Below are positions 5,800 to 41,335 of a DNA stretch of 64,000 bases, piece by piece. The notes under the pieces are model-generated. The model worked only from the letters and a program-made list of their open reading frames with translations, searched no databases and was not told the origin of the DNA. Within the stretch, counting starts at the first letter, position 1; each line of letters opens with the position of its first letter. Origin of the DNA: an uncultured Gammaproteobacteria bacterium. Its GTDB lineage: Bacteria; Patescibacteriota; Microgenomatia; Levybacterales; UBA12049. The DNA lies in the NCBI GenBank assembly GCA_964483115.1, contig CAYZZF010000001.1:19907-83906 (forward strand). Direction: 5' to 3'. The position numbers and the translations under genes are program-made.

Positions 5800-6561
5800 T
5801 TGAATGTGGATAGAGTTTTTCTTTCTATTGTGGTCCCCTCTTATAATGAAATGGCAAATCTTCAAAAAGGAGTCTTAGATAAGGTTGCACATTTTTTAGA
5901 AAAACAAAAGTATCGGTATGAAGTTATTATTGTTGATGATGGGTCTACGGATGGAAGTGTGGAGTTTGTCGAAAACTTTATAAAAGATAACATAAACTTT
6001 AAAATTATTAAAGATAATCATCTTGGTAAAGCAGGAGCAGTGACTGATGGAGTACTTGAAGCAAGGGGTGAATATATACTTTTTGCCGATATGGATCAGG
6101 CAACCCCAATTGAGGAAATCGATAAACTCCTACCGCCTTTGAGAAACGGTTTTGATATTGCAATTGGTTCAAGACATTCCCAAAGGAAAGGTGCTCCCTG
6201 GACAAGACTTATTATGGCGAAAGGTATGATATTTCTCAGAACTTTGTTAATCGGCATTTCGGGAATTTCTGATACTCAATGTGGGTTTAAAATGTTTAGA
6301 CACGATATTGCAAAAAAACTTTTCGAGAAGATAAAAAATATTCATAAGGGTTTTAAAGAAATATCCGGATCTAATGTATCTGCAGGATTTGACATCGAGC
6401 TTTTGTATTTAGCACAGAAGCTAGGTTATAAGATTAAAGAGGTCTCCGTAAATTGGCTTTATGTTGAAACGCGAAGAGTAAATCCTGTAAGAGATTCGAT
6501 CGATGGTTTACTAGATCTTATTGGAATTAAGATTAATTCTATAAAAGGAATCTACAAATAG
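5800..6561 (+). CDS. GT2 polyprenyl-phosphate sugar synthase (DPM1/GtrB/CsbB-like)
   Basis: LSIVVPSYNE, IVDDGSTDGS, the DxD element ADMDQ and TQCGFKMFR, which are typical of dolichyl-phosphate mannose/glucose synthases. Confidence 0.75.
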   Translation: MNVDRVFLSIVVPSYNEMANLQKGVLDKVAHFLEKQKYRYEVIIVDDGSTDGSVEFVENFIKDNINFKIIKDNHLGKAGAVTDGVLEARGEYILFADMDQATPIEEIDKLLPPLRNGFDIAIGSRHSQRKGAPWTRLIMAKGMIFLRTLLIGISGISDTQCGFKMFRHDIAKKLFEKIKNIHKGFKEISGSNVSAGFDIELLYLAQKLGYKIKEVSVNWLYVETRRVNPVRDSIDGLLDLIGIKINSIKGIYK

Positions 6562-6562
6562 A

Positions 6563-7753
6563 ATGTCAAATCTCAAATCTCAAATCTCAAATCTCAAAAC
6601 TTTGGCATCTTTTTATTTGATAACAATTATTGCTTTATTCTTTTATTCTTTTACCCAAGTTGACTTAAATCTTACCTTGTCCAGGTGGTCTGTTTGGCAG
6701 GTAATTGAGAAATTTTTTCAGCATATAGGTTATTTTAACCGGCCACTCTCAACAAGTTTCTTTATTGCAATTATTGCATCGTTGTTTATCTTTTACATGA
6801 TATTTCTTTTCCTTTCTTACAAAAATAAGATTAGTGAAAAACAGGTATGGTATTTAATTATATTAACAGCTGTAATTTTATTATTTTCCTACAATGCATT
6901 TTCTTACGATTTATTCAACTATATCTTTGATGCAAAAATAATAACTTATTACCGTCAAAATCCGTATTTGCATCGTGCCCTTGATTTTCCTGCTGACCCG
7001 ATGCTTTCTTTTATGCGTTGGACGCATAGGTTTTATCCATACGGTCCGGTTTGGCTTGTCTTAACAGTTCCTCTATCGTTTGTTGGGTTTAATCACTTTC
7101 TTCCTACTTTTTTTCTTTTTAAGTTTCTCGGAGTCTTGAGTTTTCTAGGAACAGCCTTTTTTATAGGAAGGATTCTGCGCAAGATTTCTCCAGAAGATAA
7201 AATTTTTGGACTTATTCTTTTTGCATTTAACCCCCTAGTTATTATAGAAGGATTAGTATCGGCACATAATGATATGCCTATGATGTTTTTTGCCATATTG
7301 TCGCTATATCTCTTTTTAGAGAGGAAACATTTTTATTCATTTGTATCACTTCTTTTATCAATTGGGATTAAGTTTGCTACGGCATTTATAATTCCCGTTT
7401 ATGTTTATTTGCTTTTTAAGAGAAGACAAAAAGAGATCAACTGGAACAAAATCTTTATTTCGATAATTTTGCTTATGATTGTACCTATTATTATTGCAAC
7501 AATTAGGACCAATTTCCAACCATGGTATTTACTATATGTTCTGTCATTTACAGCTTTTATCAAAAAAAGTTTCTATGTGATTATTCCAGTTATCGTTTTA
7601 TCCTTTTTTTCTCTTTTAGAATATGTTCCTTTTCTATATCTTGGGAATTGGAATCCGCCGGTGCCGTTTATATTAAATTTGATTATGGTTATCTCAATTA
7701 TCGTCTCGATAGTTTTAATTATCGGCTGGAGATTTAGGCAAAAATATGCTTAA
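6563..7753 (+). CDS. polytopic membrane protein (about 10 TM), putative GT-C/DUF2029-like glycosyltransferase
   Basis: Hydrophobicity pattern. It is coupled 1 nt after the upstream DPM1-like gene. It begins with an in-frame (TCAAATC)x4 tract. Confidence 0.45.
   Translation: MSNLKSQISNLKTLASFYLITIIALFFYSFTQVDLNLTLSRWSVWQVIEKFFQHIGYFNRPLSTSFFIAIIASLFIFYMIFLFLSYKNKISEKQVWYLIILTAVILLFSYNAFSYDLFNYIFDAKIITYYRQNPYLHRALDFPADPMLSFMRWTHRFYPYGPVWLVLTVPLSFVGFNHFLPTFFLFKFLGVLSFLGTAFFIGRILRKISPEDKIFGLILFAFNPLVIIEGLVSAHNDMPMMFFAILSLYLFLERKHFYSFVSLLLSIGIKFATAFIIPVYVYLLFKRRQKEINWNKIFISIILLMIVPIIIATIRTNFQPWYLLYVLSFTAFIKKSFYVIIPVIVLSFFSLLEYVPFLYLGNWNPPVPFILNLIMVISIIVSIVLIIGWRFRQKYA
6566..6600 (+). repeat. (TCAAATC)x4 perfect plus one variant unit, in-frame immediately after the ATG of the CDS at 6563
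   Basis: Read directly: tcaaatc tcaaatc tcaaatc tcaaatc tcaaaac. Encodes SNLKSQISNLKT. Confidence 0.95.
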
Positions 7754-9278
7754 CTATTGGTATAATCTTTTTATGATAGTCAAAAAATACAGGTTTGAAA
7801 TTATTGCTGGTATCGCAATTTTTGTACTTTACTTTGTAACTCGCCTGTACAATATCATGTCTCTTCCAATTTTCACCGATGAGGCTATTTATACTCGATG
7901 GTCTCAGATTGCAAGATTTGATGCAAGCTGGCGATTTATTTCTTTGACAGACGGCAAACAGCCACTTTTTGTCTGGCTTAATATGACGGTGATGAGAATT
8001 ATTCGTGATCCTTTAATGGCAGGAAGAATAGTCTCGGTTTTTGCAGGATTTTTTACAATGCTCGGGCTTTTCTTTTTGGGCAATGAAATATTTAAAAATC
8101 GCTCCATAGGAATTTTATCTGCCACTGTCTATATTATTTTTCCGTTTGCTCTCGTTTACGACCGGATGGCACTTTATGACACTTTAGTGGGAACTTTTAC
8201 TGTCTGGAGCTTGTATTTTGAAATCCTTTTAATAAGGTATATTCGTCTTGATGTAGCATTAATTCTGGGAATAATACTGGGCGGCGGAGTTCTCACTAAG
8301 ACTTCAGGATTTTTTAATATCTATCTTGCTCCTTTTTTACTTCTTATTTTTGATTGGGGGAGCAAAAATAAATTAAAAAAATTAATAAAGTGGGCAGTAC
8401 TTATGGTCGTTGCTGTTATTCTTGCCTATGGATATTATTCTATTTTAAGACTCTCGCCTTTTTTCTACATCATAAATGAAAAAAATACAATTTTTATTTA
8501 TTCTTTTCGTGATTGGCTTTCTCACCCGTTTAATTTTTTCATAGGTAATATTAGAGGACTTTGGGATTGGTTTATAACATATATCACCTGGCCTTTTTTT
8601 ATTCTTATAATTTTATCTTTTTTCATTTCGCTAAAATTCACAAGAGAAAAAATTATTCTTGTAATTTGGTTTACTGTTCCTTTTGTCGCTCTTGCTCTTT
8701 TTGGAAGAGTCTTGTATCCCAGATTTATTCTTTTTATGACCTTGTCGCTCATTCCTCTTATAGCATTTTCCCTCACTGAAATATTTAAAATTTTGAAAAA
8801 TAAATATATATTGGTTGCACTTCTAATAGTCTTTTCTGTCCTGGCAATTCGGTCTGACTATCTAGTCCTCTCCGATTTTGCAAAAGCCCCGATTCCTCAG
8901 TCAGATCTTGGCCAGTATATAAATGATTGGCCCTCAGGGGGAGGAATAAGAGAGATAATTAATTATCTCTTGGATGAATCAAAAAAGGGTAAAATTTATG
9001 TTGCGTCACTTGGAACTTTTGGGTCTCTTCCCACATATTCCGTTGAAATTTATTTAGGAGATGATAAGAATATCGAAAAACGAGGAATATATCCTATTCC
9101 TGCAGAGATTCCTAAAGATTTAATTGAGAAGTCTAAAATAATGCCTACTTTTGTGCTTTTCTCAAATCAACATGAATTTGAAAAAGCTATTAAAAACTGG
9201 CCAATCTATCCTGTTATTGAGTACAAAAAAGGAATTAAAGATTCCTACTCAAGGCTATACAGGGTCCAATCAATCTAA
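7746..9278 (+). CDS. GT-C membrane glycosyltransferase, PMT/ArnT (GT39/GT83)-like
   Basis: Many TM helices. A TDEAIYTRWS loop-1 DE motif sits near the N-terminus. Confidence 0.55.
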   Translation: MLNYWYNLFMIVKKYRFEIIAGIAIFVLYFVTRLYNIMSLPIFTDEAIYTRWSQIARFDASWRFISLTDGKQPLFVWLNMTVMRIIRDPLMAGRIVSVFAGFFTMLGLFFLGNEIFKNRSIGILSATVYIIFPFALVYDRMALYDTLVGTFTVWSLYFEILLIRYIRLDVALILGIILGGGVLTKTSGFFNIYLAPFLLLIFDWGSKNKLKKLIKWAVLMVVAVILAYGYYSILRLSPFFYIINEKNTIFIYSFRDWLSHPFNFFIGNIRGLWDWFITYITWPFFILIILSFFISLKFTREKIILVIWFTVPFVALALFGRVLYPRFILFMTLSLIPLIAFSLTEIFKILKNKYILVALLIVFSVLAIRSDYLVLSDFAKAPIPQSDLGQYINDWPSGGGIREIINYLLDESKKGKIYVASLGTFGSLPTYSVEIYLGDDKNIEKRGIYPIPAEIPKDLIEKSKIMPTFVLFSNQHEFEKAIKNWPIYPVIEYKKGIKDSYSRLYRVQSI

Positions 9279-9286
9279 AATTTCAT

Positions 9287-11665
9287 ATGTTTTACAAAAA
9301 ACTTAAGGATCTATTCCTTAAGAATAGTTACTGTTTTTTGTTTCTCGTCATTGTCCTTTTTTTCTTCAGACCGGTGTTTATAGGTAAAATTCCTTTTCCA
9401 GGCGATCTTTTGATAAATGAAAACCCATATAAAACATTAGAAAGCTATCCAAATAAAGCCCAAGGAGCGGATGTTATAAAAGAAATATACCCCTGGAGAT
9501 TTTTTTCTATAAATCAAATAAAAAATGGCGATATTCCGTTTTGGAATCCTCATAATTTTTCTGGAAATCCGCAGCTTGCAAATTTTCAAACTGCAATTTT
9601 TTACCCTTTTAATATTTTATATTTCATATTTTCTTTTAATACTGCTTGGACAATTATTATTATGCTTCAGCCATTCTTAGCAGCCATATTTATGTATTTG
9701 TTTTTGTCAAAAGGACTGCTTCTTAAGAAATTCACTTCTTTTATTGGGGGAATTGTTTTTGCTTTTTCATCGTATATGATAGTTTGGCTTGAGTATGGGA
9801 ACATTGGGAGTACTTTATTGTGGCTTCCGCTAGCATTATTATTTACTAAATGGATTTTAGATAAACCATCTATTTTTAATTTTTTGTCATTGACATTTAC
9901 TCTAACTTTCAGCATTCTTGCAGGTTATATACAAGGAGTTTTTTATATTTATGTACTTTGCTTTTTTTACTTTTTATTTTTGTTAGTATTTGAAAGAAAA
10001 AAGAAAATAAAAATACGGAACATATCTATATTTTTAATTAGCATAATATTGCCAATTTTTCTATCGGCGTTCCAGTTTTTACCGACCTACAAATTATTTC
10101 TTAATTCAACAAGAGGAAGTTATTCAATTTCCCAAATATCCAATTTACTTTTACCATCGTTTTATTGGATTACGGCTTTTGCATCTGATTTTTTCGGCAA
10201 CCCAGCAACGCGTAATTATTGGATCAGTGGGACTTATATAGAAAGAGTGATGTATGTTGGTGTACCGATTATTTTTTTTGCTTTCTACGGAGTATCCAAA
10301 TCAAAAATTTTAGAAAAAAGATTTTTTTTAGTCTTGGGCACTTTGTCTTTGATATTAGCAACTAATCTGCCGCTTGTTAAATTTTTCTATCTTATACCTT
10401 TACCTGTAATATCAACCACTGTGCCAACAAGAGAGCTAAGTATTTTTATATTCAGTCTTATCGTCTTATCTTCGATGGGTATAGATTACTGGCTTATTAA
10501 TAAAGAGAATAAGAGCAAAATTTCCATAATTTTTTTGTTAATTTATGTAGCAATTTGGCTTGCAGTAATCATTTTATCCAAGTTAGGACCGGTGAATTAT
10601 CAATATCTGCAAATAACGCGACACAATCTTATTTTACCGAGTTTTTTAGCGATCGCGACGATAATAGTTTTTTACCTTAAAAGAAAAGCAAAAACATTAG
10701 GTTTAATTTTTCTTACTTTAATTGTTATTCTTGATTTGTTATATTTTTTCAATAAAATCACACCATTTTCTCCTACTACTTTTGTTTACCCAAAGACCTC
10801 AGTTGTCTCGTTTTTACAGAAAAATGCTGGGATTAATAGGTTTTGGGGTTATGGATCTGCTTATATTCCCGCTAATTTCCAGACCATTGACGGCACGTAT
10901 TCTCCAGAGGGCAATGATCCATTACATATAGAGTCTTACGGGCAACTTCTTGCTTCATCAGCAAAGGGTACGCTACCAAACGTCTTGCCAAGACCAGATG
11001 CAAATATTGTGCCGGGATTTGGAACTAATGATTTAAAAAATAATTATTACAGACAAAGAATTATTAATCTTTTGGGAGTTAAATATATATTGAATAAAAA
11101 TGATAGTCTTTTGAAAGAATATGTGCCTGACTATGATACCTTTGCGCAAAATTATTATAAGCTAGTTTGGCAGGATTCCCCTTGGCAGATTTATGAAAAT
11201 AAAAATGCTCTTCCAAGGTTTTTTATGACAGGAAGCTATGTTATTATTAAGGATAAAAATTCCGTAATTTCAGCCATTTACAACAAAAATCTTGATTTAC
11301 AAAAAACTTTAATTTTAGAAGAAAAACCATCAATGTCAATAGACGGAGATTCTTTAGGTATCGCAAAACTTTTATCTTATACGCCTAACAAAGTCTCATT
11401 TTCTACAAAAAGTAATGGTAACAGTCTTTTATTTCTATCCGATAATTATTGGGATGAATGGCAGGCACTTATTGACAACAAGCCCGTAAAAACATATATT
11501 GCTGATTATTCTTTTAGAGCAGTTGAGGTGCCTAAAGGCCAGCATACTTTTGTATTTTCTTACAATCCTGCCTCTTTTTTTCTTGGACTTAAAATATCAT
11601 CAATCAGTCTTTTAATTCTAATACTGATACCTTTATGGATAAAAAAATATGGTAAAGAAATATAA
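9287..11665 (+). CDS. yfhO: YfhO-family GT-C membrane glycosyltransferase
   Basis: Signature YPW-x(6-12)-PxWNP-x-xFSG-P-x-AN-x-Q-x-A-x-FYP (IYPWRFFSINQIKNGDIPFWNPHNFSGNPQLANFQTAIFYP). Length 792 aa with a C-terminal extracytoplasmic domain. Confidence 0.75.
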   Translation: MFYKKLKDLFLKNSYCFLFLVIVLFFFRPVFIGKIPFPGDLLINENPYKTLESYPNKAQGADVIKEIYPWRFFSINQIKNGDIPFWNPHNFSGNPQLANFQTAIFYPFNILYFIFSFNTAWTIIIMLQPFLAAIFMYLFLSKGLLLKKFTSFIGGIVFAFSSYMIVWLEYGNIGSTLLWLPLALLFTKWILDKPSIFNFLSLTFTLTFSILAGYIQGVFYIYVLCFFYFLFLLVFERKKKIKIRNISIFLISIILPIFLSAFQFLPTYKLFLNSTRGSYSISQISNLLLPSFYWITAFASDFFGNPATRNYWISGTYIERVMYVGVPIIFFAFYGVSKSKILEKRFFLVLGTLSLILATNLPLVKFFYLIPLPVISTTVPTRELSIFIFSLIVLSSMGIDYWLINKENKSKISIIFLLIYVAIWLAVIILSKLGPVNYQYLQITRHNLILPSFLAIATIIVFYLKRKAKTLGLIFLTLIVILDLLYFFNKITPFSPTTFVYPKTSVVSFLQKNAGINRFWGYGSAYIPANFQTIDGTYSPEGNDPLHIESYGQLLASSAKGTLPNVLPRPDANIVPGFGTNDLKNNYYRQRIINLLGVKYILNKNDSLLKEYVPDYDTFAQNYYKLVWQDSPWQIYENKNALPRFFMTGSYVIIKDKNSVISAIYNKNLDLQKTLILEEKPSMSIDGDSLGIAKLLSYTPNKVSFSTKSNGNSLLFLSDNYWDEWQALIDNKPVKTYIADYSFRAVEVPKGQHTFVFSYNPASFFLGLKISSISLLILILIPLWIKKYGKEI

Positions 11666-13211
11666 TTTGATATTTATATTACTGGTAATTTTGGCTGCAA
11701 TACCGAGCGTTTTAGCTCTTTTTCATCCCGGGTTTTTCCAAACTGCTGATGGGACGTGGATGATTATTAGATTTTCAGCTTTTCATCAAGCGCTTCGTGA
11801 TGGTCAATTTCCTGTAAGGTTTTTAGGGAGGCTAAACTTCGGATATGGTTACCCAGTTGCGGATTTTTTATATCCGGGGTTTATGTATCTTGCGGAAATT
11901 CCAAAAGTTTTGGGTTTTGGGTTTATCAATTCCATAAAAATCATTTTGGGATTATCTATAATTACGTCAGCTATTTTTGTTTACTTTTGGCTGGCAAAGT
12001 TATTCGATCGTTTATCAAGCCTTCTGGGCGCACTTATATATATTTACGTTCCCTACTATTTATATGATCTTTATAACCGTGGATCAGTTGGAGAAGTTCT
12101 TGCCCTTTCGGTGGTCCCATTTATTCTTTGGCAAATAGAAAGAAAGAGTTTTTTTTGGACAACCGTAGGCTTAGGATTTTTAGTACTTTCGCATAATACT
12201 CTTGCAGTTTTATTTTTACCTCTTATAATATTCTACCTTACTCTTGATGTCTTAAACTCCTCAAATAAACGGGTGCTAATATATCGATATGCTAGTATGT
12301 TGGCGCTGGGTTTGGGATTAGCATCTTTTTTTTGGTTGCCTGCTATTTTTGATTTACAATATACAATTTTTCAAAAAACTCCTATTTCTGATTTTAATAT
12401 GTATTTTGTAGGTATAAATTTAATAGGCTTTTCTACATTATTTATTTTTTTGTTGACTTTTGTACTATTTTTAATCGGGAAAATTAAGTTTTCAAAACAT
12501 CGGTTGACAGTGTTACTGTTTATTATCGGAATTATTTCTGTATTTTTCGCAACTTCGTTAAGTGTTCCATTATGGAAAATTCTTCCAGTTTCTTTTATTC
12601 AGTTTCCTTTTCGGTTTTTATCGATCGCTATATTATGTGCGGCTTTTCTCGTAGCCTTCGCAATTTCGGTTTTACCAAATAGGGCAAAAATCATAATGGT
12701 ATTGCTTATCTTTGTTCTTGCATTTTTATCATCAAAATCTTATTTGATTCCATCCCAATTCTTTGAGAGGGATGATCTTTATTATTCAACTAATGAAGGA
12801 ACAACTACAGTGCAAAATGAATATATGCCAAAATGGGTAAAGAATCAGCCCAATCAACATTTTAAAGAGAAAGTAGAACTAATAGAAGGAAAAGCAAATA
12901 TAAATAATTTAGATTATAATTCTAAACAAGTGGTGTTTGATATTAATTCTTCGGGAAACTCAAAAGTCAGGATAAATACAATTTATTTTCCAGGCTGGAA
13001 GTCCACTATCGATGGAAATCCGTCCAATATTGAATACACCAACGACCGGGGGGTCATAGATCTGTCGGTTCCAAAAGGAGAACACAAAATAAAACTCAAG
13101 TTTTCAGAAACCCCTCTTCGCCTTTTAGCAGATCTTATCTCCTTATTTAGTCTAATAATCTTAATTGGTATTACATTAAAAGCAGTTTATATCCATAGGG
13201 TGTCAAGCTAA
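11649..13211 (+). CDS. polytopic membrane protein, GT-C-like family A (possibly PTPS-related membrane protein family), paralog 1
   Basis: N-terminus LFHPGFF..DG...R..EF..ALRDGQFPVR....NFGYGYP is conserved with the CDSs at 13332 and 39704. The C-terminal beta-sandwich-like tail (YFPGWK...VPKGEHKIKL) matches the others. I cannot confirm the family assignment without a search. Confidence 0.5.
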   Translation: MVKKYNLIFILLVILAAIPSVLALFHPGFFQTADGTWMIIRFSAFHQALRDGQFPVRFLGRLNFGYGYPVADFLYPGFMYLAEIPKVLGFGFINSIKIILGLSIITSAIFVYFWLAKLFDRLSSLLGALIYIYVPYYLYDLYNRGSVGEVLALSVVPFILWQIERKSFFWTTVGLGFLVLSHNTLAVLFLPLIIFYLTLDVLNSSNKRVLIYRYASMLALGLGLASFFWLPAIFDLQYTIFQKTPISDFNMYFVGINLIGFSTLFIFLLTFVLFLIGKIKFSKHRLTVLLFIIGIISVFFATSLSVPLWKILPVSFIQFPFRFLSIAILCAAFLVAFAISVLPNRAKIIMVLLIFVLAFLSSKSYLIPSQFFERDDLYYSTNEGTTTVQNEYMPKWVKNQPNQHFKEKVELIEGKANINNLDYNSKQVVFDINSSGNSKVRINTIYFPGWKSTIDGNPSNIEYTNDRGVIDLSVPKGEHKIKLKFSETPLRLLADLISLFSLIILIGITLKAVYIHRVSS

Positions 13212-13226
13212 TCCACCCTTAGGGTG
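13205..13226 (+). promoter_or_regulatory. conserved post-stop motif AAGCTAATCCACCCTTAGGGTG (copy 1), a small hairpin CACCC-tta-GGGTG
   Basis: 15 of 15 nt identical to the copy at 24210-24232. Both copies overlap or follow a stop codon and precede a GT-C gene. Confidence 0.4.
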
Positions 13227-13315
13227 TCTTGGGGTGCCTTGCGATTACACTTAGCACTTTACAGCTAAACGTTGAGTTAGCTAAAATTCTATTTTATAAC
13301 TAGTTGAATTGTCTA

Positions 13316-13321: not shown

Positions 13322-13331
13322 ACGAGTTAGT

Positions 13332-15811: not shown

Positions 15812-15822
15812 GCCCTTTATTT

Positions 15823-17277: not shown

Positions 17278-17280
17278 TTT

Positions 17281-19873: not shown

Positions 19874-19946
19874 ACTAAATCACTAGAAGATAATAAAAAT
19901 AAAAATATTTGTAAGCCCATTAATTCCGCAGTATAATTCAAAATAA

Positions 19947-20513: not shown

Positions 20514-20514
20514 T

Positions 20515-32834: not shown

Positions 32835-34568
32835 TTACTCAAGTTTAGTAATAAATGTAACACAAAACTTCTTTTCAGGTAGATCTTCTACATTAAAATC
32901 ACTAAGAGATAAATTTTCAGGGTATCTTCTAAAATTATATTTACTACATATTTTATCGTTAAATATTTTATAAATCTCTCCTCCATCTGAAAGTCTTGCA
33001 ATAGTTAAATTTTTTGCCGTTTTATCTACTGTCTTACAATTAAAGTCACGCTCGGCAATTAGGACAGTATTTTTTTCTAATTTTTTTGGGCATGAACCAA
33101 AGACAACGTTATCATATCTGAATTGGTAGTTATTTATATTTTGTGCTATTAAATTTGCACTTTTTGAATTGTAGTTATTGGTATAGAATAAATACTGTCT
33201 AAAAAGAGAAGGAATTATTTTGCTGTTTTTGTTTGTTAAAACGAATACTTTTTGTCCATTATTTTCTGCAGACTTAATGTATTTTGAAACTACTCTGTTT
33301 GAAAAACCAAAGCCTTCAGAATTGTAGACTGGATTTCTAAATAAATATATATACATAAAATTGGCAACAGACAGAGAATAAAAAATGATCAATAACAGAG
33401 TTATTGTCCTTTTATATTTAGCAATAGTTTGGGAGTCTAAAAAATACCATATTCCAAAACCTGTAATAATTATTAAAAAAGGAAACGCAAGAGATGACCT
33501 TATTGGGTAGGATGTTCCAACATTGCTTAAAACAGACGGTAAAGGTGTGATTAGGAGCATACTAAGGAAAAGAAAAAAAACTTCTTTATATTTTCTGTAA
33601 AGCCCATAGAATCCTATAATCAAGAAAATTATATCAAGGTAATAAAACATTCCATGATTCCAGATAGAGAAAGTAGATCTTGAATCACCATATGAAAACA
33701 AAAATTGACTAGAATAAAAGCCTAAGAATTTATTTATGGAATCCTGACTAATCAATGTTAATTTATTTGAAAATAAATTGCTTAGCGGATTTTCTATTGT
33801 GTTTTTTCTTGCTTCATTCACAGCTTGTGCTGTCTTGCCGAGATTTAAAATGCTTATCTCAGACAGTCTTGCAGATGTAGCCGTGCGCATAGAAACAAAG
33901 AAATAAAAAATAGTAGCTAAAGACAAGAGGAGTACAATGACATATTGGAAAGTATACTTCTTTTTATAAATATATTTCCAGACAAACAGTATTGCAATGA
34001 TGACAAATGGTATAAATATAATTTTTGTACCGATATAAGTATAAAATCCCAAGAATAGAAAAGGGAAGGAAAAAATAATTTTCCAGCCTTTTTTTATCAA
34101 TAAGATATAAAAACTTAATAAGAAAAAGAATACAGCCAGAGGTGCATCAAAAGAGGTTCTACCAAAGTATATAGACCAAGGATTAATTGCTGCAACAAGA
34201 CCAATTATAAATGCCTGTTTTTCTCCAAACAGTCTTTTTCCTACTAAATATAAAACAATTATCAGTAAAACACTAGATAATGCATAAGGAAAACGCGCGG
34301 CTAAAAGAGAAAAATTTAAAGCCCCTATAAAAGGAGCAATTAAGATATAAGGTAATTCGGCTTTTGGGTTTTCATAGGGAGGAATAGTAAGCGAAAAAGG
34401 AGACCATGTTTGACTGATGTCTTTTCCTGTTAAGAATATTGATTTGGCATTCAATATATAATCTAGTTCATCGTCACTTATTCCAATTGGAATTCTGTCT
34501 AGTAAAGATAGGCGAAGAACTAAAGAAAGGGAAATTATTGCAAAAAGAGGGAGAAATTTAATTTTCAT
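32835..34568 (-). CDS. GT-C membrane glycosyltransferase (ArnT/PMT-like)
   Basis: GISDDELDY DE-motif. Polytopic. Confidence 0.5.
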   Translation of the reverse strand: MKIKFLPLFAIISLSLVLRLSLLDRIPIGISDDELDYILNAKSIFLTGKDISQTWSPFSLTIPPYENPKAELPYILIAPFIGALNFSLLAARFPYALSSVLLIIVLYLVGKRLFGEKQAFIIGLVAAINPWSIYFGRTSFDAPLAVFFFLLSFYILLIKKGWKIIFSFPFLFLGFYTYIGTKIIFIPFVIIAILFVWKYIYKKKYTFQYVIVLLLSLATIFYFFVSMRTATSARLSEISILNLGKTAQAVNEARKNTIENPLSNLFSNKLTLISQDSINKFLGFYSSQFLFSYGDSRSTFSIWNHGMFYYLDIIFLIIGFYGLYRKYKEVFFLFLSMLLITPLPSVLSNVGTSYPIRSSLAFPFLIIITGFGIWYFLDSQTIAKYKRTITLLLIIFYSLSVANFMYIYLFRNPVYNSEGFGFSNRVVSKYIKSAENNGQKVFVLTNKNSKIIPSLFRQYLFYTNNYNSKSANLIAQNINNYQFRYDNVVFGSCPKKLEKNTVLIAERDFNCKTVDKTAKNLTIARLSDGGEIYKIFNDKICSKYNFRRYPENLSLSDFNVEDLPEKKFCVTFITKLE

Positions 34569-34616
34569 TCGTTTTTAATTATGATATCATACTAATGTTG
34601 TTTATTTCCAAACTTT

Positions 34617-36302
34617 GTGAAGAGAACTAATTTTATCTTAATTTTTATTATTATAGTAGCCGCTTTTTTACGCTTTTATCAACTTGGGACAAATCCTCCT
34701 TCATTGACCTGGGATGAAGTGGCCTGGGGATATAATGCTTACTCTTTGGGACTTGATGGGAAAGATGAATTTGACAGATTTTTACCCGTTGATTATTTAG
34801 AGTCATTTGGGGATTTTAAGCCTCCTGTTTATGCATATCTAGATGTCATTCCGATAAAATTATTTGGACTCACCACCTTTGCGGTGAGATTCCCCTCTGC
34901 TTTTTTTGGCGTTCTTACGGTTTTACTAACTTATTTTTTGGTAAAAAGAATATTCTATAATTCAAAAAATAAAGAACTTTATGCTTTATTCTCCACTTTT
35001 ATTCTTGCAATATCTCCTTGGCATATTTTGCTCTCTCGTGCGGCATTTGAGGCAAACGTTGCATCATTTTTCATCGTAATGGGCATGTTTCTTTTTTTCA
35101 AGGCAATATCTCAAGGTGTAGCCTCTATATCACCTCGGAGGTGGGGTTATATTTACACCTTAGGATTTTTTCTTATCTTGTCTGTTATCTCTTTTATTCT
35201 TTCTATGTATACTTTTAGCACCGCAAGAATTATTGCTCCTCTTTTAATTATAATTTTAGCAGTAGGTTTTAGAAAAGAGCTTCTTTCGCGAAAAAAAGAA
35301 ATAGCTCTTGCAATTATTCTCGGATTTTTTTTGCTATTGCCACTTATAAATTTTTTATTTACACCAGCTGCAAGTCTTAGGTTTAGAGAGGTAAATATTT
35401 TTTCCGATATAGCTGTTATTGAGAATACAAATCAGGAAATTACCAATGATAATGATGCTATTTGGTCAAAAGTAATTCACAATAGACGCTTTGCTTATGC
35501 TGTATCTTATTTCAGACATTATTTTGATAATTTAAGTCCAAGCTTTCTTTTTATAAAAGGAGATGGAAATCCTAAGTTTTCAACTCAAACAGTTGGAGAA
35601 ATGTACTTATGGGATTTGCCATTTTTCATTGTTGGTGTTTTTCTGCTTATTAAAAGAAAAGAAGGCAATTGGTGGATTATTCCCGCTTGGCTTATCTTAG
35701 GAATAATTCCTGCCGCGACTGCTCGTGAAACCCCCCATGCTTTAAGAATCGAAGCAACACTTCCGACTTTCCAAACCATAACCGCAATTGGAGTAAGTTC
35801 GTTTATAATCTGGATAAAGAATCTAAGACTAAAAAAATATTTTAAATCTTTAATTGTCATTTTTATATTTTCATTTTTAATTTTTAATTTTGTATATTTT
35901 TATCATGATTATTTTGCGCATTATTCAAGAATTTATTCGGGAGAATGGCAGTATGGATACAGAGATTCAATTGAGTATGTAAAAAGCGTTCAAAATCAAT
36001 ATGACGAAATCCGCATTACAAATAAATTGGGAAGACCATATATATATTATCTATTTTATACAAATACAAACCCTAAGATATTTAGAAAAACTGCACAAAT
36101 TAAAAGAGATTCTTTTGGATTTGTGACCATCCGCGGATTTTCTAAATATCGTTTTTCGGACAGTCTTTTGTCAATAAAAGATAAAGCAAGGAGAGTCCTT
36201 TATATCGATATTCCAGCAAGAGTTCCAAAAAAAGTAGAGATTTTGAAATCGTTTTACTTACTTAACGGAGAGAAAATGCTGGTTGCCTATAGAGAAAATT
36301 GA
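34617..36302 (+). CDS. GT-C membrane glycosyltransferase (ArnT/PMT_2-like), first of three tandem paralogs
   Basis: GTNPPSLTWDEVAWGYNAYSL...DEFDRFLPV...FKPPVYAYL. GTG start. Confidence 0.6.
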   Translation: MKRTNFILIFIIIVAAFLRFYQLGTNPPSLTWDEVAWGYNAYSLGLDGKDEFDRFLPVDYLESFGDFKPPVYAYLDVIPIKLFGLTTFAVRFPSAFFGVLTVLLTYFLVKRIFYNSKNKELYALFSTFILAISPWHILLSRAAFEANVASFFIVMGMFLFFKAISQGVASISPRRWGYIYTLGFFLILSVISFILSMYTFSTARIIAPLLIIILAVGFRKELLSRKKEIALAIILGFFLLLPLINFLFTPAASLRFREVNIFSDIAVIENTNQEITNDNDAIWSKVIHNRRFAYAVSYFRHYFDNLSPSFLFIKGDGNPKFSTQTVGEMYLWDLPFFIVGVFLLIKRKEGNWWIIPAWLILGIIPAATARETPHALRIEATLPTFQTITAIGVSSFIIWIKNLRLKKYFKSLIVIFIFSFLIFNFVYFYHDYFAHYSRIYSGEWQYGYRDSIEYVKSVQNQYDEIRITNKLGRPYIYYLFYTNTNPKIFRKTAQIKRDSFGFVTIRGFSKYRFSDSLLSIKDKARRVLYIDIPARVPKKVEILKSFYLLNGEKMLVAYREN

Positions 36303-38026
36303 TGTTTGGGTTGAAAATGAATAAAAAAATTGTTTATCTTTGTCTTTTTTTGATTATTATTACTGCCTCAATATTAAGATTATGGCAGTTAGGAAATGTT
36401 CCGCCTTCTCCAGATTGGGATGAGGCTGCTCTTGGGTATAATGCATATTCGATTTTACATACAGGCCGCGACGAGTATGGAAAGTTATTGCCGATTGTAC
36501 TTAGGTCATTTGATGATTATAAGCCTGCTTTATATGCATATTTAGTCATTCCATTTATCAAAATAATTGGTCTAAATGTAGTCGCGGTAAGATTACCTTC
36601 AGTAATCTTTGGCATACTGACTGTTATTGCAACATATTTCTTGGTTAAAGAATTACTCGGCGAAAAACTCAAAGCTCAAAATGCAAATCTCAAAATTGTA
36701 ACTCAAAACTCAAAAGTTGAACCACTTGCTCTTTTAACAGCGTTTTTACTTGCAATTTCTCCCTGGCACATCCAATTTTCAAGAATTGCGTTCGAATCAA
36801 ATGTTGGTCTTGCATTTAATGTTTTCTTTGTATTTTTCTTTCTCAAAGGTCTTAAAAAACCATGGTTGCTTATTTTATCTGCTTTCTTTATGGGAATAAA
36901 TATATATGTCTATCAGAGTGAAAAAGTTTTTACCCCGCTTTTACTTTTAGCGCTTGTCGTGATATTTAGAAAAGAGCTTTTTTCTATTCCTAAAAAATAT
37001 ATTATTTATGCAGTAGTTATTGGTATTTTGGTGTTTTTACCAATGGCAGGATATATCATTAGCAACAAAAACGTTTTTGAAAGAGCGCAAGGAGTCAGTA
37101 TCTTTGCAGAGTCCTCACAGCTTTTGGAAGAAAATTCTAAAAAACTTCTTGTTGATAGGCAAAACAATGATTTCTTAGGTCTCATACTAGATAACCGCCG
37201 TATCGTTTTTGCCAAAGAGATTATATCAGGATATGTTTCGCACTTTAATCTTAATTGGCTTTTTATAACTGGTGATATTGCAAGGCATCATGCTCCTAAT
37301 ATGGGACTTTTGTATCTTTTCGAATTACCATTCTTGTTTGTTGGTATCTATGAGTTGATTTTTGGTAAGTTTGATAAAAAAATAAAGTTTTTAATATTTT
37401 CGTGGTTTCTTATTGCACCTATACCAGCGTCAATTACAAGTGGAGTGCCTCATGCGGTTAGGTCCCTCAATTTTCTTCCCATGTTCCAAATATTTATAGC
37501 ATTAGGAATAGTTAGCAGTATTGCTTTAATTTCAAATTTTAAATTTAAAATTTTAAATTTTAAAATATGGAAACTATTTGCTATTTGCTATTTGCTATTT
37601 GCTATTTTTAATTTTTTATATTATTTAGACCAATATTTTGTTCAGCTTAATTATTTTAACTCAAAAGATTGGCAGTATGGCTATAAACAAACAATAGATA
37701 CCGTTAAGCAGATAGAAGTAAAATATAAAAAAATTATTGTATCTAACCAGCCATATTTAGATCAGTCTTATATGTTTTTTCTCTTTTACTTAAAATACCC
37801 ACCCGAATTGTATCAGAAAGAATCAAAATTTGCTTCTGGGGGTTTTAGAGAAAATCATAAATTTGGAAAATTTGAATTTAGGCCATTTAATTTTGAAAAT
37901 GAAAAAGAAACAGAAGTTTTGTATATAGGAAGACCGCTTGATTTTCCGCAAAATGACTTAGGACAAGTAAAAACCATAAATTTTTTAGATGGAACTCCGG
38001 CAATAAAAATGGTTGAAAGATTATGA
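36299..38026 (+). CDS. GT-C membrane glycosyltransferase (ArnT/PMT_2-like), second tandem paralog
   Basis: GNVPPSPDWDEAALGYNAYSIL...DEYGKLLPI...YKPALYAYL. Carries a degenerate heptamer tract plus (AAATTTT)x4 and (CTATTTG)x4 tracts. Confidence 0.6.
   Translation: MMFGLKMNKKIVYLCLFLIIITASILRLWQLGNVPPSPDWDEAALGYNAYSILHTGRDEYGKLLPIVLRSFDDYKPALYAYLVIPFIKIIGLNVVAVRLPSVIFGILTVIATYFLVKELLGEKLKAQNANLKIVTQNSKVEPLALLTAFLLAISPWHIQFSRIAFESNVGLAFNVFFVFFFLKGLKKPWLLILSAFFMGINIYVYQSEKVFTPLLLLALVVIFRKELFSIPKKYIIYAVVIGILVFLPMAGYIISNKNVFERAQGVSIFAESSQLLEENSKKLLVDRQNNDFLGLILDNRRIVFAKEIISGYVSHFNLNWLFITGDIARHHAPNMGLLYLFELPFLFVGIYELIFGKFDKKIKFLIFSWFLIAPIPASITSGVPHAVRSLNFLPMFQIFIALGIVSSIALISNFKFKILNFKIWKLFAICYLLFAIFNFLYYLDQYFVQLNYFNSKDWQYGYKQTIDTVKQIEVKYKKIIVSNQPYLDQSYMFFLFYLKYPPELYQKESKFASGGFRENHKFGKFEFRPFNFENEKETEVLYIGRPLDFPQNDLGQVKTINFLDGTPAIKMVERL
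36665..36714 (+). repeat. degenerate 7-nt periodic tract (aaactca aagctca aaatgca aatctca aaattgt aactcaa aactcaa) in the GT-C gene at 36299
   Basis: Read directly. Confidence 0.75.
37534..37608 (+). repeat. two adjacent heptamer tracts, (AAATTT[T/A])x4 then (CTATTTG)x4 plus one variant unit, in-frame in the GT-C gene at 36299
   Basis: aaatttt aaattta aaatttt aaatttt ... ctatttg x4 ctatttt. Encodes FKILNFKIWKLFAICYLLFAIF. Confidence 0.9.
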
Positions 38027-39714
38027 GAAATCTTAAGATTCTTTTTCTTTTAAGTATTATTCTTTTGGCCGTATTCTTACGTTTTTATAAATTAAATACC
38101 GTTCCACCGAGTGCCTCTTTAGACGAGGCAAGCATTGGTTTTAATGCTTACTCAATTCTTCAAACAGGAGAGGATGAGTACGGATATAAATTTCCCATTC
38201 TTCTCAGAGCTTACGATGATTGGCGCCCTGCGCTTTACGTTTATCTTGTCATTCCATTTGTAAAAATTTTTGGTCTTGATGCTATATCGGTGCGCTTACC
38301 TTCGGTGATTCTTTCAGTTCTAACTATTTTAGCAACTTATTTTTTGGTAAAAAAACTTTTTAAACTCAAAACTCAAAACTCAAAACTCAAAAATACAATT
38401 CAAAATTCAAAAGAATCAGAAATTAGTAGTTTGAGATTAGAAATTTTAGCTTTGCTTTCAATAGGATTGTTCGCGATATCCCCATTGAGTGTATATATTT
38501 CAAGACTTGGCCACGAAGCAAATCTAGGACTATTTTTTGTTGTTTTTGGAATTTTATTTTTTCTGCTTTCGCAAAGAAAAAAAACGTTTCTTATTCTTTC
38601 TGCAATTTTTTTTGCTCTATCTTTATATTCATATCAGAGTGAAAAAATATTTGCCCCGCTTATAGTTATTGCTCTGGGTATTATATACAGAAAAGAGCTT
38701 TATAAGATAAAAAAAACTCTTTTACTATCTATTGTTATAGGATTATTAATTTCGATTCCAATTTTAGCTGCTTCTTTTTCTCCGCAAGCGCTTATTAGAT
38801 TTAAAGGAACCAGCGCATTTGATGCTTCTAATCCTTTATATAGTCAAAGCGCAAAACGTCTTCTTATAAGTCGGCAGAAGAGCGATATTATTGGTGAGGT
38901 TCTAAACAATAGACGAATAACAAGCGTATATATTTTTATTTCCCAATATTTTTCAAATTTTAATCCGCAATGGATTTTTGAGAATCGTGGAAACGAATCA
39001 TTTAAAGCGCCAGGAGTTGGACTTTTATATTTTTGGGAGGCTCCGTTTCTTTTGGTTGGGATATTTTCCCTTTTCAAAAATAAATATTCATCAAAGACAA
39101 AAGCTGTTGTCGCTTCTTGGGCTCTAATAGCTTTTGTTGCTCCTTCTATAACAACTCAAGCCCCTCATGCTATGAGATCTTACAATGTATTGCCAATACC
39201 TCAGATTTTGATTGGCCTTGGGATCCTTGAAATGGGTAAATTCTTCCCTAAAAAGCTTGGAATTATTTTGCTTGCCATTTTAGTGGTTTCTCAACTTTAC
39301 TACTTCTTTAATCAATATTTTTTTGTTTTTCCAAGAACGGAATCATCTTCATTTCAATATGCTTTATCAAATGTAATGCCTTATGTTTCTAGAGTCAAAA
39401 ATAAATATAAAACTGTTGTAATTTCAAATAGGGATAACTTATACCAATCTTATATGTTTTATCTTTTTTATACTAGATATAAGCCAACATTGTATTTAGG
39501 AAACGGAGGTACTGTATCTGGCGGATTTGCTCAAACGCATAAAATTGACAATCTTTTGTTTAAGCCCATTTCTTTTAAAGATAATGCAATAGAAGGGAAA
39601 ACCCTTTATGTAGGTAATCCTTCGGATTTTCCAAAATCCGAAGCTAGTCTTCTTATGTTTGAAAACCTTGATGGAAAACCTGCCGTAGAAGTGGTATCAA
39701 AAAATGAAAATTAA
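38023..39714 (+). CDS. GT-C membrane glycosyltransferase (ArnT/PMT_2-like), third tandem paralog
   Basis: NTVPPSASLDEASIGFNAYSIL...DEYGYKFPI...WRPALYVYL. Carries an (AAACTCA)x4 tract. Confidence 0.6.
   Translation: MRNLKILFLLSIILLAVFLRFYKLNTVPPSASLDEASIGFNAYSILQTGEDEYGYKFPILLRAYDDWRPALYVYLVIPFVKIFGLDAISVRLPSVILSVLTILATYFLVKKLFKLKTQNSKLKNTIQNSKESEISSLRLEILALLSIGLFAISPLSVYISRLGHEANLGLFFVVFGILFFLLSQRKKTFLILSAIFFALSLYSYQSEKIFAPLIVIALGIIYRKELYKIKKTLLLSIVIGLLISIPILAASFSPQALIRFKGTSAFDASNPLYSQSAKRLLISRQKSDIIGEVLNNRRITSVYIFISQYFSNFNPQWIFENRGNESFKAPGVGLLYFWEAPFLLVGIFSLFKNKYSSKTKAVVASWALIAFVAPSITTQAPHAMRSYNVLPIPQILIGLGILEMGKFFPKKLGIILLAILVVSQLYYFFNQYFFVFPRTESSSFQYALSNVMPYVSRVKNKYKTVVISNRDNLYQSYMFYLFYTRYKPTLYLGNGGTVSGGFAQTHKIDNLLFKPISFKDNAIEGKTLYVGNPSDFPKSEASLLMFENLDGKPAVEVVSKNEN
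38362..38410 (+). repeat. (AAACTCA)x4 perfect plus three degenerate units, in-frame in the GT-C gene at 38023
   Basis: aaactca x4 then aaaatac aattcaa aattcaa. Encodes KLKTQNSKLKNTIQNSK. Confidence 0.95.
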
Positions 39715-41335
39715 GTATTTAATTTTTCTTATATTGCTTTGTGTTATCCCTATAATCTCGTTATTCCACAGCGGATTGCCAATTACTCATGATGGACAGG
39801 ATCATGTGGCAAGAATTGCCAATTTTTATCAAAATTTAAAAGAAGGTGTAATTATTCCTCGCTGGGCGGGAAATCTAAATTGGGGATATGGCCATCCTAT
39901 TTTGGAGTTTTTGTATCCGCTCCCATCATATATCGCATCCCTGTTCCATTTTATAGGATTTTCTTTGGTTGATTCTACAAAGATAGTTTTTGGCCTTTCT
40001 ATGGTTTCGTCTTTGATATTTATGTACTTGTGGTTATCCTCTTTTCTTTCAAGGAATTCTGCTATTTTAGGCGCAGTTTTATATGCTTATGCACCTTATA
40101 GATTTGTCGACCTTTATGTAAGAGGAGACATAGGTGAGAATTTAGCTTTTGCATTTATTCCATTAGTTCTCCTTTTTATTTATAGAATTTCTAAAGAAAA
40201 AAATTTCAATAATGTTCTTTTTGGAGGGATATCTCTTGCCTTTCTAATTCTTTCCCACAACGCAGTAAGCCTTATATTTATACCGTTTATCCTTTTTTAT
40301 ACACTTTTTTTAATCGCAAAAGATAAAAACAGAAAAAGAAAACTTATTTACTATTATACTATTATATTAGTATTAGGTTTTGCTTTATCTGCCTTTTTTT
40401 GGATTCCAGGTCTTTTTGAAGCAAAATACACACTTAGAAATATTGTAACAAAAGGCGCGTATTTAGAAAGATTTGTAAATTTAAAAGATTTAATTTACGG
40501 TTCATGGAAATACGACATCACAGGTCAATTTACCGTTCAAGTTGGAATCATCAATTGGTTATCATTAATAGTTTCTCCAATTGTTGGATTTTATCTTTAC
40601 AAAAAAACCAATAAGGATTATATATTAATCTTGGGTCTTATTATTTATACTCTTATTGCTATATTTTTGATGCTTCCTGTCTCTAACTTTATTTGGTCAA
40701 GAATTATGCTTTTGCAAAACTTTCAATTTCCCTGGCGATTTTTGGCAATAACTATTTTTACAACTGCTGTTCTAGGAGCTTTTTTTGTTTCACTTATTCC
40801 TCAAAAATTTCAGATTTGGTTTTCGCTAGTTCTTATAGCTTTGATTTTGATTCTTAGTAAAGATTACATAAAGCCTAAAGGATATCTTTATAAACCAGAA
40901 AGTTTTTACACAGGAATTTATAAGGGAACTACAGATACAGGTGAGAGTGCACCAATTTGGTCTGTGAGATTTATGGAAAAAGAGCCAAAAGCGCATCTGG
41001 AAGTAGTGGATGGCGAGGCTAAAATAACAGAGATAAAAAGAACCTCAATTTATCACGAGTATAAGATAGCGGCAAGAAAGAAAACGATGTTTTTGGAGAA
41101 TACTTTATATTTTCCGGGTTGGCAAATAATTGCCAACAACAATCCTGTACAAATCGAATTTCAAAATCCACAATATAGAGGGCTTATGACTTTTGTTCTT
41201 GGAAAAGGCAATTATAAATTAGCGGTTCTTTATAAAGAAACAAAAGTAAGAGCTTTTGCAGATGCTATTTCTATAGTGGTATTTTTAAATATTTTGGGAC
41301 TCTTTACTTTTAAGTTTGTAAAAGTTAAATTTTAA
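39704..41335 (+). CDS. polytopic membrane protein, GT-C-like family A, paralog 3
   Basis: LFHSGLPITHDGQDHVARIANF...GVIIPRWAGNLNWGYGHP plus the C-terminal tail motif. Confidence 0.5.
   Translation: MKIKYLIFLILLCVIPIISLFHSGLPITHDGQDHVARIANFYQNLKEGVIIPRWAGNLNWGYGHPILEFLYPLPSYIASLFHFIGFSLVDSTKIVFGLSMVSSLIFMYLWLSSFLSRNSAILGAVLYAYAPYRFVDLYVRGDIGENLAFAFIPLVLLFIYRISKEKNFNNVLFGGISLAFLILSHNAVSLIFIPFILFYTLFLIAKDKNRKRKLIYYYTIILVLGFALSAFFWIPGLFEAKYTLRNIVTKGAYLERFVNLKDLIYGSWKYDITGQFTVQVGIINWLSLIVSPIVGFYLYKKTNKDYILILGLIIYTLIAIFLMLPVSNFIWSRIMLLQNFQFPWRFLAITIFTTAVLGAFFVSLIPQKFQIWFSLVLIALILILSKDYIKPKGYLYKPESFYTGIYKGTTDTGESAPIWSVRFMEKEPKAHLEVVDGEAKITEIKRTSIYHEYKIAARKKTMFLENTLYFPGWQIIANNNPVQIEFQNPQYRGLMTFVLGKGNYKLAVLYKETKVRAFADAISIVVFLNILGLFTFKFVKVKF

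Follow-up and report, generated by a model that had tools for sequence, protein, structure and literature searches.

The window analysed here is a stretch of 64,000 nucleotides from a member of the Levybacterales (contig CAYZZF010000001.1, positions 19,907 to 83,906). It carries a gene cluster of ~58 kb in which polytopic glycosyltransferases (GTs) of the GT-C type are interleaved with short GT2 enzymes, candidate polyprenyl-phosphate-sugar synthases. The cluster is probably a supercluster of multi-component transmembrane glycosylation systems for building or decorating glycopolymers of the envelope on the outside of the membrane, a reading carried by family assignment, fold, motifs and synteny. 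In such systems a cytoplasmic GT-A makes a C55-P-sugar, a flippase moves the sugar and a GT-C transfers it outside the membrane (PMC8035078).

Open reading frame (ORF) listing, a Pfam scan of every window ORF of at least 150 amino acids, a Kyte-Doolittle count of transmembrane (TM) segments and all-versus-all BLASTP showed that 6563-41335 holds 15 polytopic ORFs related to GT-C enzymes: seven PMT_2/ArnT-like, three YfhO, three PTPS_related and two GT87/MptA_B-like. An earlier note on this DNA had claimed about 15 such genes in 36 kb, including three YfhO and three tandem PMT-like genes, and the count proved to be exactly 15, with both trios present. The range it proposed, 5800-41335, encloses all of them but ends too early: a synthase candidate at 47671 lies past its end and two additional AftD-like GT-Cs lie outside it, at 58207-64000, giving 17 GT-Cs in the window. 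Glycosyltransferases thus account for 34 of the ~46 ORFs at 5800-64000 (17 GT-C, four short GT2, seven other GT2 and six GT4). Nearly all cluster genes are on the plus strand and their reading frames abut or overlap. Most bacterial genomes carry a handful of GT-C genes per several Mb; this cluster takes up ~5% of a genome of ~1.1 Mb, the size being that of a Levybacteria chromosome record of 1,142,061 bp. Since the GT-C paralogs of the window share just 25-44% identity (BLASTP), they look like an old family set and not a recent burst. The predicted GT-C genes are as follows; a heptamer array is a tandem repeat with a period of 7 nucleotides.

GT87a, 6563-7753, plus strand: MptA_B/GT87-like GT-C of 396 amino acids; Pfam score of 23 bits against a gathering score of 25; heptamer array in codons 2-12
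PMT2a, 7746-9278, plus strand: PMT_2 at 42.4 bits; 9 TM segments; TDE motif after the first TM segment (TM1)
YfhO1, 9287-11665, plus strand: YfhO at 114.5 bits; C-terminal beta domain and terminal TM segment; D62 invariant
PTPS1, 11649-13211, plus strand: PTPS_related at 39.8 bits
PTPS2, 13332-15077, plus strand: no Pfam hit; 30-32% identity to PTPS1 and PTPS3; orthologs carry PF10131; D34 invariant; array at 14007-14040
YfhO2, 20515-22854, plus strand: YfhO at 76.9 bits; orthogroup in 29 loci
YfhO3, 24234-26558, plus strand: YfhO at 90.8 bits; orthogroup in 55 loci, the most conserved GT-C of the cluster
PMT2b, 28219-29706, plus strand: PMT_2 at 18.6 bits against a cut-off of 26.1; Asp after TM1 conserved
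GT87b, 29703-30929, plus strand: GT87 at 28.5 bits, over the cut-off; orthogroup in 15 loci
PMT2c, 30902-32713, minus strand: PMT_2 at 42.1 bits; accessory, few orthologs
PMT2d, 32835-34568, minus strand: PMT_2 at 27.6 bits; accessory, few orthologs
PMT2e, PMT2f and PMT2g, 34617-36302, 36299-38026 and 38023-39714, plus strand: tandem genes; PMT at 47.7 and PMT_2 at ~30 bits; several heptamer arrays
PTPS3, 39704-41335, plus strand: PTPS_related at 34.2 and PMT_2 at 28.3 bits
AftD1, 58207-61764, plus strand: 1185 amino acids; GT-C_AftD at 47.3 bits; DUF5667; CBM_4_9 carbohydrate-binding module (CBM)
AftD2, 62139-64000, plus strand: partial, running off the window end; three heptamer arrays; no Pfam hit

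The paralogs were linked by BLASTP: PMT2e, PMT2f and PMT2g are 33-44% identical to one another, the three YfhO ORFs 33-35% and the three PTPS_related ORFs 30-33%, and AftD2 shares 25% identity with AftD1 over 472 amino acids (E 2e-12). A 106-amino-acid ORF at 43542-43862, between an epimerase and a GT4 gene, has 44% identity to the last 77 residues of PTPS1 (family hidden Markov model [HMM], E 1.6e-17); this similarity points to a remnant of a GT-C that has been lost, or else to a beta-domain that stands alone on a TM anchor.

The membrane ORFs are assigned to GT-C by Pfam membership, profile comparison and predicted fold. A Kyte-Doolittle scan showed 7-11 hydrophobic segments in all 15 ORFs and nine in AftD1. 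Twelve of the 15, as well as AftD1, exceeded the gathering score of a Pfam family (PMT/PMT_2, YfhO, PTPS_related, GT87 or GT-C_AftD, which we take to be members of the GT-C clan); GT87a and PMT2b scored below it, PTPS2 gave no hit, and these three were tied in by paralogy, family HMMs, hhalign and hits of PF10131/PF26314 on their orthologs. Family alignments (A1-A5) built from the window paralogs and their orthologs were then compared by hhalign with the PMT2e/f/g/d family, which gave probabilities of 99.4% for PMT2a/b/c, 97.8% for PTPS_related (E 1e-12), 83.5% for the GT87-like proteins and 65% for YfhO. Searched against PDB, the PMT2e/f/g/d profile matched ArnT (5ezm, E 0.004), and the PTPS, YfhO and GT87-like alignments matched nothing at E <= 1, so that evidence on the fold of these three families had to come from models. 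AlphaFold (AF2) models were obtained for two of the 17 GT-C proteins, from the two least certain families. The PTPS2 model (predicted local distance difference test, pLDDT, 86; predicted template modelling score, pTM, 0.89) matched AglB, ArnT, STT3, AftA, AftD, EmbA/B, DPY19, ALG9/12 and AftB in Foldseek. The top matches of both models were GT-C proteins only, and the GT87a model also matched PIG-U and GAB1. Thus the GT-C fold on structure prediction, fixed beforehand as the test that could overturn the assignment, was recovered where the families were least certain, and the proposal that these ORFs are GT-Cs, for which HMM searches had been suggested, agrees with the 12 Pfam matches among 15 as well as with profiles and fold. 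PTPS2 also ends in a C-terminal beta-sandwich common to YfhO proteins (model and BLASTP), which Foldseek matched in part to a CBM21 and to chains of glycoside hydrolases.

An Asp or Asp-Glu right after TM1 is conserved in 13 PMT_2, PTPS and YfhO ORFs and in the GT87a orthologs. D34 (PTPS), D62 (YfhO) and D33-E34 (PMT2e-g and d) are invariant, D41 of PMT2a-c is Asp in 20 of 21 sequences and D34 of GT87a in 36 of 37; the motifs read HDD/ADG in PTPS and WDE/TDE/HDQ in PMT_2. GT87b is without the N-terminal Asp of GT87a. We infer that this acidic loop faces outward. The conserved adjacency of GT-C genes to synthase candidates suggests that a lipid-phosphate-linked sugar is the donor of the GT-Cs.

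The synthase candidates are four short GT2s of 238-253 amino acids, each with a full-length Pfam Glycos_transf_2 match at 62-123 bits.

sGT2a, 5800-6561, plus strand: 253 amino acids; Glycos_transf_2 at 100 bits; best in PDB DPMS 5mlz (1.5e-17), then GtrB 5ekp and ArnC; first gene of the cluster
sGT2b, 15074-15811, plus strand: best in PDB DPMS 5mlz (2.9e-16, residues 6-234), then ArnC; overlaps the flippase gene
sGT2c, 27499-28215, plus strand: top PDB matches ArnC 9hwj, DPMS 5mlz and GtrB; best NCBIfam match AglJ at 121 bits, under its cut-off; array at 27639-27675
sGT2d, 47671-48426, plus strand: best in PDB DPMS 5mlz (1.4e-9), then GtrB; adjoins RmlD and a dehydratase

The best PDB matches of all four were the Pyrococcus Dol-P-Man synthase (DPMS, 5mlz), ArnC or GtrB. 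sGT2b aligns with residues 25-247 of DPMS and sGT2c with its residues 23-230, nearly the whole catalytic domain including the region of the interface helix, and the DAD of sGT2c and the DMD of sGT2a align with its DAD (DXD motif). The longest NCBIfam matches, which span most of the catalytic domain, were to the PgfS, ArnC, AglJ, Dol-P-hexose transferase and PpgS models. Accordingly, the four may be placed as candidates in the polyprenyl-phosphate-sugar synthase clade. A hydrophobicity scan showed a C-terminal hydrophobic segment of the GtrB/CsbB type in none of them; this is the architecture of the TM-less enzymes PpgS, haloarchaeal Dol-P-hexose transferase and GacI (PMC8035078). The earlier note had described four DPM1/GtrB/CsbB-like synthases: all four are present and group with DPMS, ArnC and GtrB, but their TM-less build is not that of GtrB or CsbB. 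Human DPM1 shares the TM-less architecture.

Synteny was analysed in 80 loci from a genome-collection scan with sGT2c and in 80 more from a metagenome scan with GT87a. Three modules, each anchored by a synthase candidate and set apart from the next by a stretch whose GT-C genes vary, are conserved in ~160 contigs from Candidatus Levybacteria and related organisms:

Module 1: sGT2a-GT87a-PMT2a
Module 2: PTPS1-PTPS2-sGT2b-Wzx1, then three GT2
Module 3: YfhO2-GT4-YfhO3-GT2-sGT2c

The sGT2a ortholog stands immediately upstream of GT87a in 53 of 57 metagenome loci, and a PMT2a-like gene follows GT87a in 51 of 54. The order PTPS GT-C, short GT2, Wzx was found in all 15 loci covering that region; in the window PTPS2, sGT2b and Wzx1 are contiguous and overlapping, so that a synthase, a flippase and a GT-C are encoded together. 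The sGT2c loci have the core GT2-GT2-GT2-YfhO2-GT4-YfhO3-GT2-sGT2c, followed by variable GT-C genes, and the ortholog of the GT2 at 26555-27502 always precedes sGT2c in the relatives. The next gene after sGT2c is a GT-C in 44 of 61 loci, at a density of 2.9 GT-C genes per 10 kb. Clustering of the 362 GT-C ORFs within 10 kb on each side of sGT2c gave 75 orthogroups, few of them core (YfhO3 in 55 loci, PMT2e in 38, PMT2f/g in 34, YfhO2 in 29) and 44 of them singletons or doubletons. Even the closest relatives carry different GT-C gene sets, and orthologs keep 45-70% identity between species. The pairing of interleaved synthases with GT-Cs, as first proposed, is thus borne out by an adjacency kept in more than 100 independent contigs.

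The closest matches to sGT2c, PTPS2 and GT87a come from metagenome-assembled genomes (MAGs) of Levybacteria, which places the window in a Candidatus Levybacteria genome (Microgenomates, Patescibacteria); for sGT2c, nearly all of the 80 loci are Candidatus Levybacteria/Levyibacteriota MAGs, with identity of up to 76%. The cluster is compact, with four GT-Cs, in the single-cell genome of a distant member of the Patescibacteria (L076), which suggests that the ancestral version was compact too, and near sGT2c relatives outside the Candidate Phyla Radiation (CPR; Leptolinea) no GT-C was found. The expansion, for which lineage specificity had been raised, therefore stands as a set of many GT-Cs paired with synthases but does not belong to this genome alone: it is an old, lineage-wide conserved supercluster with variable stretches, shared across Candidatus Levybacteria. 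The recurrence of this gene order in over 100 independent contigs rules out an assembly artefact or chimera. Phage seroconversion modules were likewise set aside, scans of viral contigs with the PMT_2 alignment and sGT2c having returned one partial hit of 27%. Several of the related contigs (L005, L008, L010, L014 and others) are titled 'uncultured Gammaproteobacteria bacterium' in Third Party Annotation (TPA) records, and one Pacearchaeota; by synteny and 60-72% identity they belong with Levybacteria and the titles are probably taxonomic mislabels.

The remaining cluster genes encode flippases, cytoplasmic enzymes and small proteins.

Wzx1, 15787-17277, plus strand: MOP/Wzx-type flippase; Polysacc_synt_3 at 162.8 bits; 11 TM segments
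Three cytoplasmic GT2, 17281-18192, 18189-19103 and 19037-19873, plus strand: Glycos_transf_2; same order in most loci
GT4, 23133-24203, plus strand: Glycos_transf_1 at 89.8 bits; between YfhO2 and YfhO3, position conserved
GT2, 26555-27502, plus strand: 315 amino acids; Glycos_transf_2 at 96 bits; one C-terminal hydrophobic segment; array at 26709-26744
Cytoplasmic GT2, 41352-42179, plus strand: Glycos_transf_2 at 77.9 bits
Sugar-nucleotide/backbone module, 42563-47659, plus strand: epimerase/dehydratase (Epimerase), GT4 (Glycos_transf_1), Wzx-like protein, RmlC-like protein (dTDP_sugar_isom), RmlD (RmlD_sub_bind)
Second Wzx-like MOP flippase, 44917-46224, plus strand: Polysacc_synt_3
Further cytoplasmic enzymes, 48430-58214, plus strand: by Pfam two epimerase/dehydratases, a DegT aminotransferase, four GT4 and two GT2
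Small protein with four TM segments, 61751-62131, plus strand: between AftD1 and AftD2; candidate flippase or partner protein
Left flank of the cluster, 1-5755: MFS transporter, beta-lactamase-family protein, two polysaccharide deacetylases

The two flippases expected from the earlier note are both there, though of the Wzx/MOP and not the GtrA type. The location of the small protein at 61751-62131 recalls the small flippases or partner proteins of GT-C systems; tested as a GtrA/GacJ candidate, it matched nothing in Pfam or NCBIfam and had only five homologs in 5.8 billion proteins, so that it is left unassigned. G+C is ~32% over the window, 0.37-0.40 in the left flank and 0.29-0.34 inside the cluster. 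The sole sizeable gap of the cluster (19873-20515) holds a 145-amino-acid ORF (19947-20384) with weak matches (E ~1e-3) to the N-terminal domain of a type I restriction R subunit. At 42176-42400, between the GT2 at 41352 and the epimerase at 42563, lies a truncated gene for a 74-amino-acid four-helix-bundle '23S rRNA intervening sequence protein' (23S-IVP), with a weak Avd-like match; several relatives carry a PMT_2-like GT-C at this spot, between orthologs of the same two genes. The truncated 23S-IVP gene and the PTPS relic at 43542-43862 are marks of gene turnover in this genome.

A model that brings these components together would be the following. In the cytoplasm, GT2 and GT4 enzymes would assemble lipid-linked glycan precursors from sugars supplied through the Rml-like, epimerase and aminotransferase genes, and Wzx-type transporters would export the precursors. 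In parallel, the four small peripheral DPMS/PpgS-like GT2s would charge polyprenyl phosphate with single sugars; these lipid-monophosphate sugars would be flipped to the outer face of the membrane, where the neighbouring MOP proteins of Wzx type are the probable flippases, on the pattern of GacK. There they would be donors for up to 17 GT-Cs that extend or decorate the polymer(s). As the GT-C content of the variable stretches differs between species, strain-specific glycan structures could result. The donors, flipping by Wzx, glycan acceptors and number of polymers are what we infer in this model. Glycan acceptors are favoured over protein because of the C-terminal beta-sandwich of PTPS2 and YfhO proteins and the CBM of AftD1.

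Several results weigh against the model. The GT-Cs with a structural model are just two of 17. NCBIfam scores of the short GT2s are all far under the equivalog cut-offs, so none can be called an ortholog of a named enzyme. Pfam and NCBIfam searches recognised no GtrA-type flippase among the window ORFs, nor was a GacJ-like partner recognised, and Pfam scans of the window showed no priming phosphoglycosyltransferase, Wzy polymerase, LCP ligase or ABC exporter. Finally, the D-E motif of PMT type and the structural matches to AglB and STT3 would fit protein acceptors equally well.

The last point leads to the explanation that survives best beside a glycopolymer supercluster, namely that proteins of the cell surface (S-layer, pilins or others) are the main substrate of the cluster, which would then be an O-mannosyltransferase- or oligosaccharyltransferase-like system. 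Seven ORFs match PMT/PMT_2 and keep the post-TM1 D-E pair typical of protein O-mannosyltransferases, the oligosaccharyltransferases AglB and STT3 are the best Foldseek matches of the PTPS2 model, and in the closest relative (L081) a type IV pilus operon (4705-7915) lies directly before the cluster, which continues into the sGT2c locus. However, PMT_2 also holds GacL, CsdD/F, GtlB and ArnT, whose acceptors are polysaccharides, teichoic acids or lipid A (PMC8035078), and the characterised YfhO enzymes act on teichoic acids (PMC5836110). Moreover, six GT-Cs have a beta-sandwich or CBM-type extracytoplasmic domain, AftD1 carries CBM_4_9, and in the window the cluster adjoins deacetylases and an MFS transporter instead of pilus genes. 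On balance we regard mainly protein acceptors as unlikely.

Somewhat more unlikely still is a set of independent envelope pathways that lie together but do not interact combinatorially, every one of them having a separate synthase/GT-C pair; the products might be, for example, a capsule, a lipoglycan and a polymer like teichoic acid. The three separately conserved synthase-anchored modules, the two Wzx genes and the distinct Rml/DegT/GT4 block at 42563-58214 would agree with it, and in B. subtilis and L. lactis different polymers are indeed served by several GT-A/GT-C pairs that work independently (PMC8035078). Yet the genes are nearly all co-directional with overlapping or abutting frames, the modules are contiguous and in the same order across Levybacteria, and a further set of genes for priming or export was not seen. 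That many GT-C-like ORFs are non-catalytic or have other roles (PIG-U-like scaffolds, polymerases, ligases), which would inflate the transferase count, is highly improbable: it could draw on the matches of the GT87a model to PIG-U and GAB1, non-catalytic proteins of GT-C fold, on the YfhO, PTPS_related and GT87-like profiles that match no solved structure by sequence and on the Asp missing from GT87b, but it meets the conserved post-TM1 Asp or Asp-Glu, orthologs kept at 45-70% identity across species and a donor synthase candidate in each module.

The heptamer arrays may add a second source of diversity to gene exchange. Tandem Repeats Finder detected a dozen period-7 arrays of 4-9 copies inside glycosyltransferase ORFs:

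Heptamer arrays: 6562-6598, 14007-14040, 26709-26744, 27639-27675, 35839-35902, 36664-36715
Heptamer arrays, continued: 37528-37607, 38362-38412, 44314-44342, 62631-62662, 63089-63114, 63336-63367

Seven are perfect arrays of at least four copies, against 0.02 expected, and the window has no such arrays at periods 4-6 or 8-11. Homopolymer tracts are unremarkable (longest A9; G8 at 57042). Gain or loss of one unit would truncate each array-bearing ORF. Related loci contain arrays of like kind, almost only of period 7, with 3.1-5.3 copies inside the glycosyltransferase ORFs. Array positions are kept in orthologs (GT87a codon 2-3, sGT2c ~residue 48, YfhO3 ~195, the GT2 at 26555 ~51, PMT2f ~392-426), and the unit sequence changes between species in all copies at once, which suggests ongoing repeat turnover. 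No out-of-frame state was seen: ~47 perfect arrays, in the window and ~160 related loci, all lie in intact frames. A metagenome scan with exact flanks and a variable gap returned no copy-number variants of the GT87a array, and the enrichment of arrays inside the cluster over the upstream flank in relatives (11 versus 2) was not significant (p = 0.11). In two metagenome GT87a orthologs (L103 135-179, L109 3136-3180) CTG replaces the TTG/ATG start that overlaps the sGT2a stop, and the frame is open through the array; this suggests a near-cognate start or coupled re-initiation. A survey of phase variation and simple sequence repeats in Haemophilus influenzae also deals with heptanucleotide repeats (PMC2651432). 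From their sequence, the arrays of the window are candidate contingency loci, for which phase variation is plausible.

More tentatively, Levybacteria (monoderm, ultra-small, with ~1 Mb genomes) might build a major envelope glycopolymer largely outside the cell, on a mycobacteria-like line of ~17 GT-Cs and four synthases, its structure being reshuffled over evolution by exchange of GT-C genes in the variable stretches, and within populations by heptamer repeats at fixed positions in the transferase genes that would turn single enzymes on and off. We put this forward as a possibility worth stating, and hold it with less conviction than the supercluster itself.

The enzyme kinds and the logic of their pairing were known already. 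New are their multiplicity, their packing into one conserved cluster of a ~1 Mb genome, the modules with variable stretches and the in-gene heptamer arrays. In the literature searched, neither GT-C, YfhO nor this cluster is connected with CPR/Patescibacteria or Levybacteria, and a recent perspective on Patescibacteria mentions neither polysaccharide, teichoic acid nor S-layer, its sole 'glycos-' match being glycoside hydrolases. To our knowledge, almost nothing is known about CPR surface glycans. Cells of these lineages are thought to live attached to other microbes, and their surface is the site of host recognition and phage attack. A conserved layout whose enzyme set varies suggests that the cell-surface glycan can be diversified greatly and predicts serotype-like glycan diversity in uncultivated bacteria, for which a repeat-driven switching mechanism is possible; if true, heptamer switching would be the first contingency-locus system described in the CPR. 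The cluster also offers four candidate lipid-sugar synthases and 17 predicted outward-facing transferases, several from families without a solved structure (YfhO, PTPS_related).

Four known systems can be compared with the cluster. In the GacI/GacJ/GacK/GacL system of Streptococcus pyogenes, the GT-A is TM-less, the flippase is of Wzx type and the GT-C, a PMT_2 protein, transfers its sugar to a rhamnose-containing wall polysaccharide (PMC8035078). The grouping of an anchor-less GT-A, an adjacent Wzx flippase and a GT-C is likewise seen in PTPS2-sGT2b-Wzx1, and the window has RmlC/RmlD genes as well. The window differs in having four synthase candidates and 17 GT-Cs where Gac has one of each, no recognised GacJ-like partner, and a PTPS_related GT-C beside sGT2b instead of PMT_2. 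CsbB/GtcA/YfhO, of which YfhO/CsbB glycosylate lipoteichoic acid (PMC5836110), and GtrA/GtrB/GtrC (PMC11127046) likewise join a GT2 polyprenyl-P-sugar synthase to an extracytoplasmic GT-C of YfhO or PMT_2 type, and there too the GT-C differs between strains, giving serotype diversity. However, CsbB and GtrB have two C-terminal TM helices and a small GtrA-type flippase, neither found in the window, and these systems decorate a finished polymer with one sugar, whereas the number of GT-Cs in the window suggests that chains are built too. A further precedent, with a MOP-family flippase, is a three-component O-antigen system, the pentofuranose (GT136) system of C. youngae, where this flippase replaces GtrA and the GT-C carries a CBM (PMC11127046); its synthase is a phosphoribosyltransferase and not a GT2, and it has a single GT-C.

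By analogy, we consider the nearest counterpart in scale to be the mycobacterial assembly of lipoglycan and arabinogalactan from polyprenyl-P-sugars. Mycobacteria and corynebacteria use many GT-Cs (MptA_B-family, GT87, AftD-like with CBM) and polyprenyl-P-monosaccharides for large glycans outside the membrane (PMC3485146, PMC12041525), the mycobacterial set comprising the synthases Ppm1 and PpgS and the GT-Cs MptA/MptB, PimE, AftA-D and EmbA-C. Sequence identity of the window enzymes to the mycobacterial ones is marginal, and no arabinose-donor genes (DPPR synthase, DprE) were seen in the window. Like the candidates of the window, mycobacterial PpgS is short and TM-less, and residues 5-213 of sGT2c match its NCBIfam model. 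The mycobacterial genes are scattered over a 4-Mb genome, whereas those of the window stand together in one ~58-kb cluster of a ~1 Mb genome.

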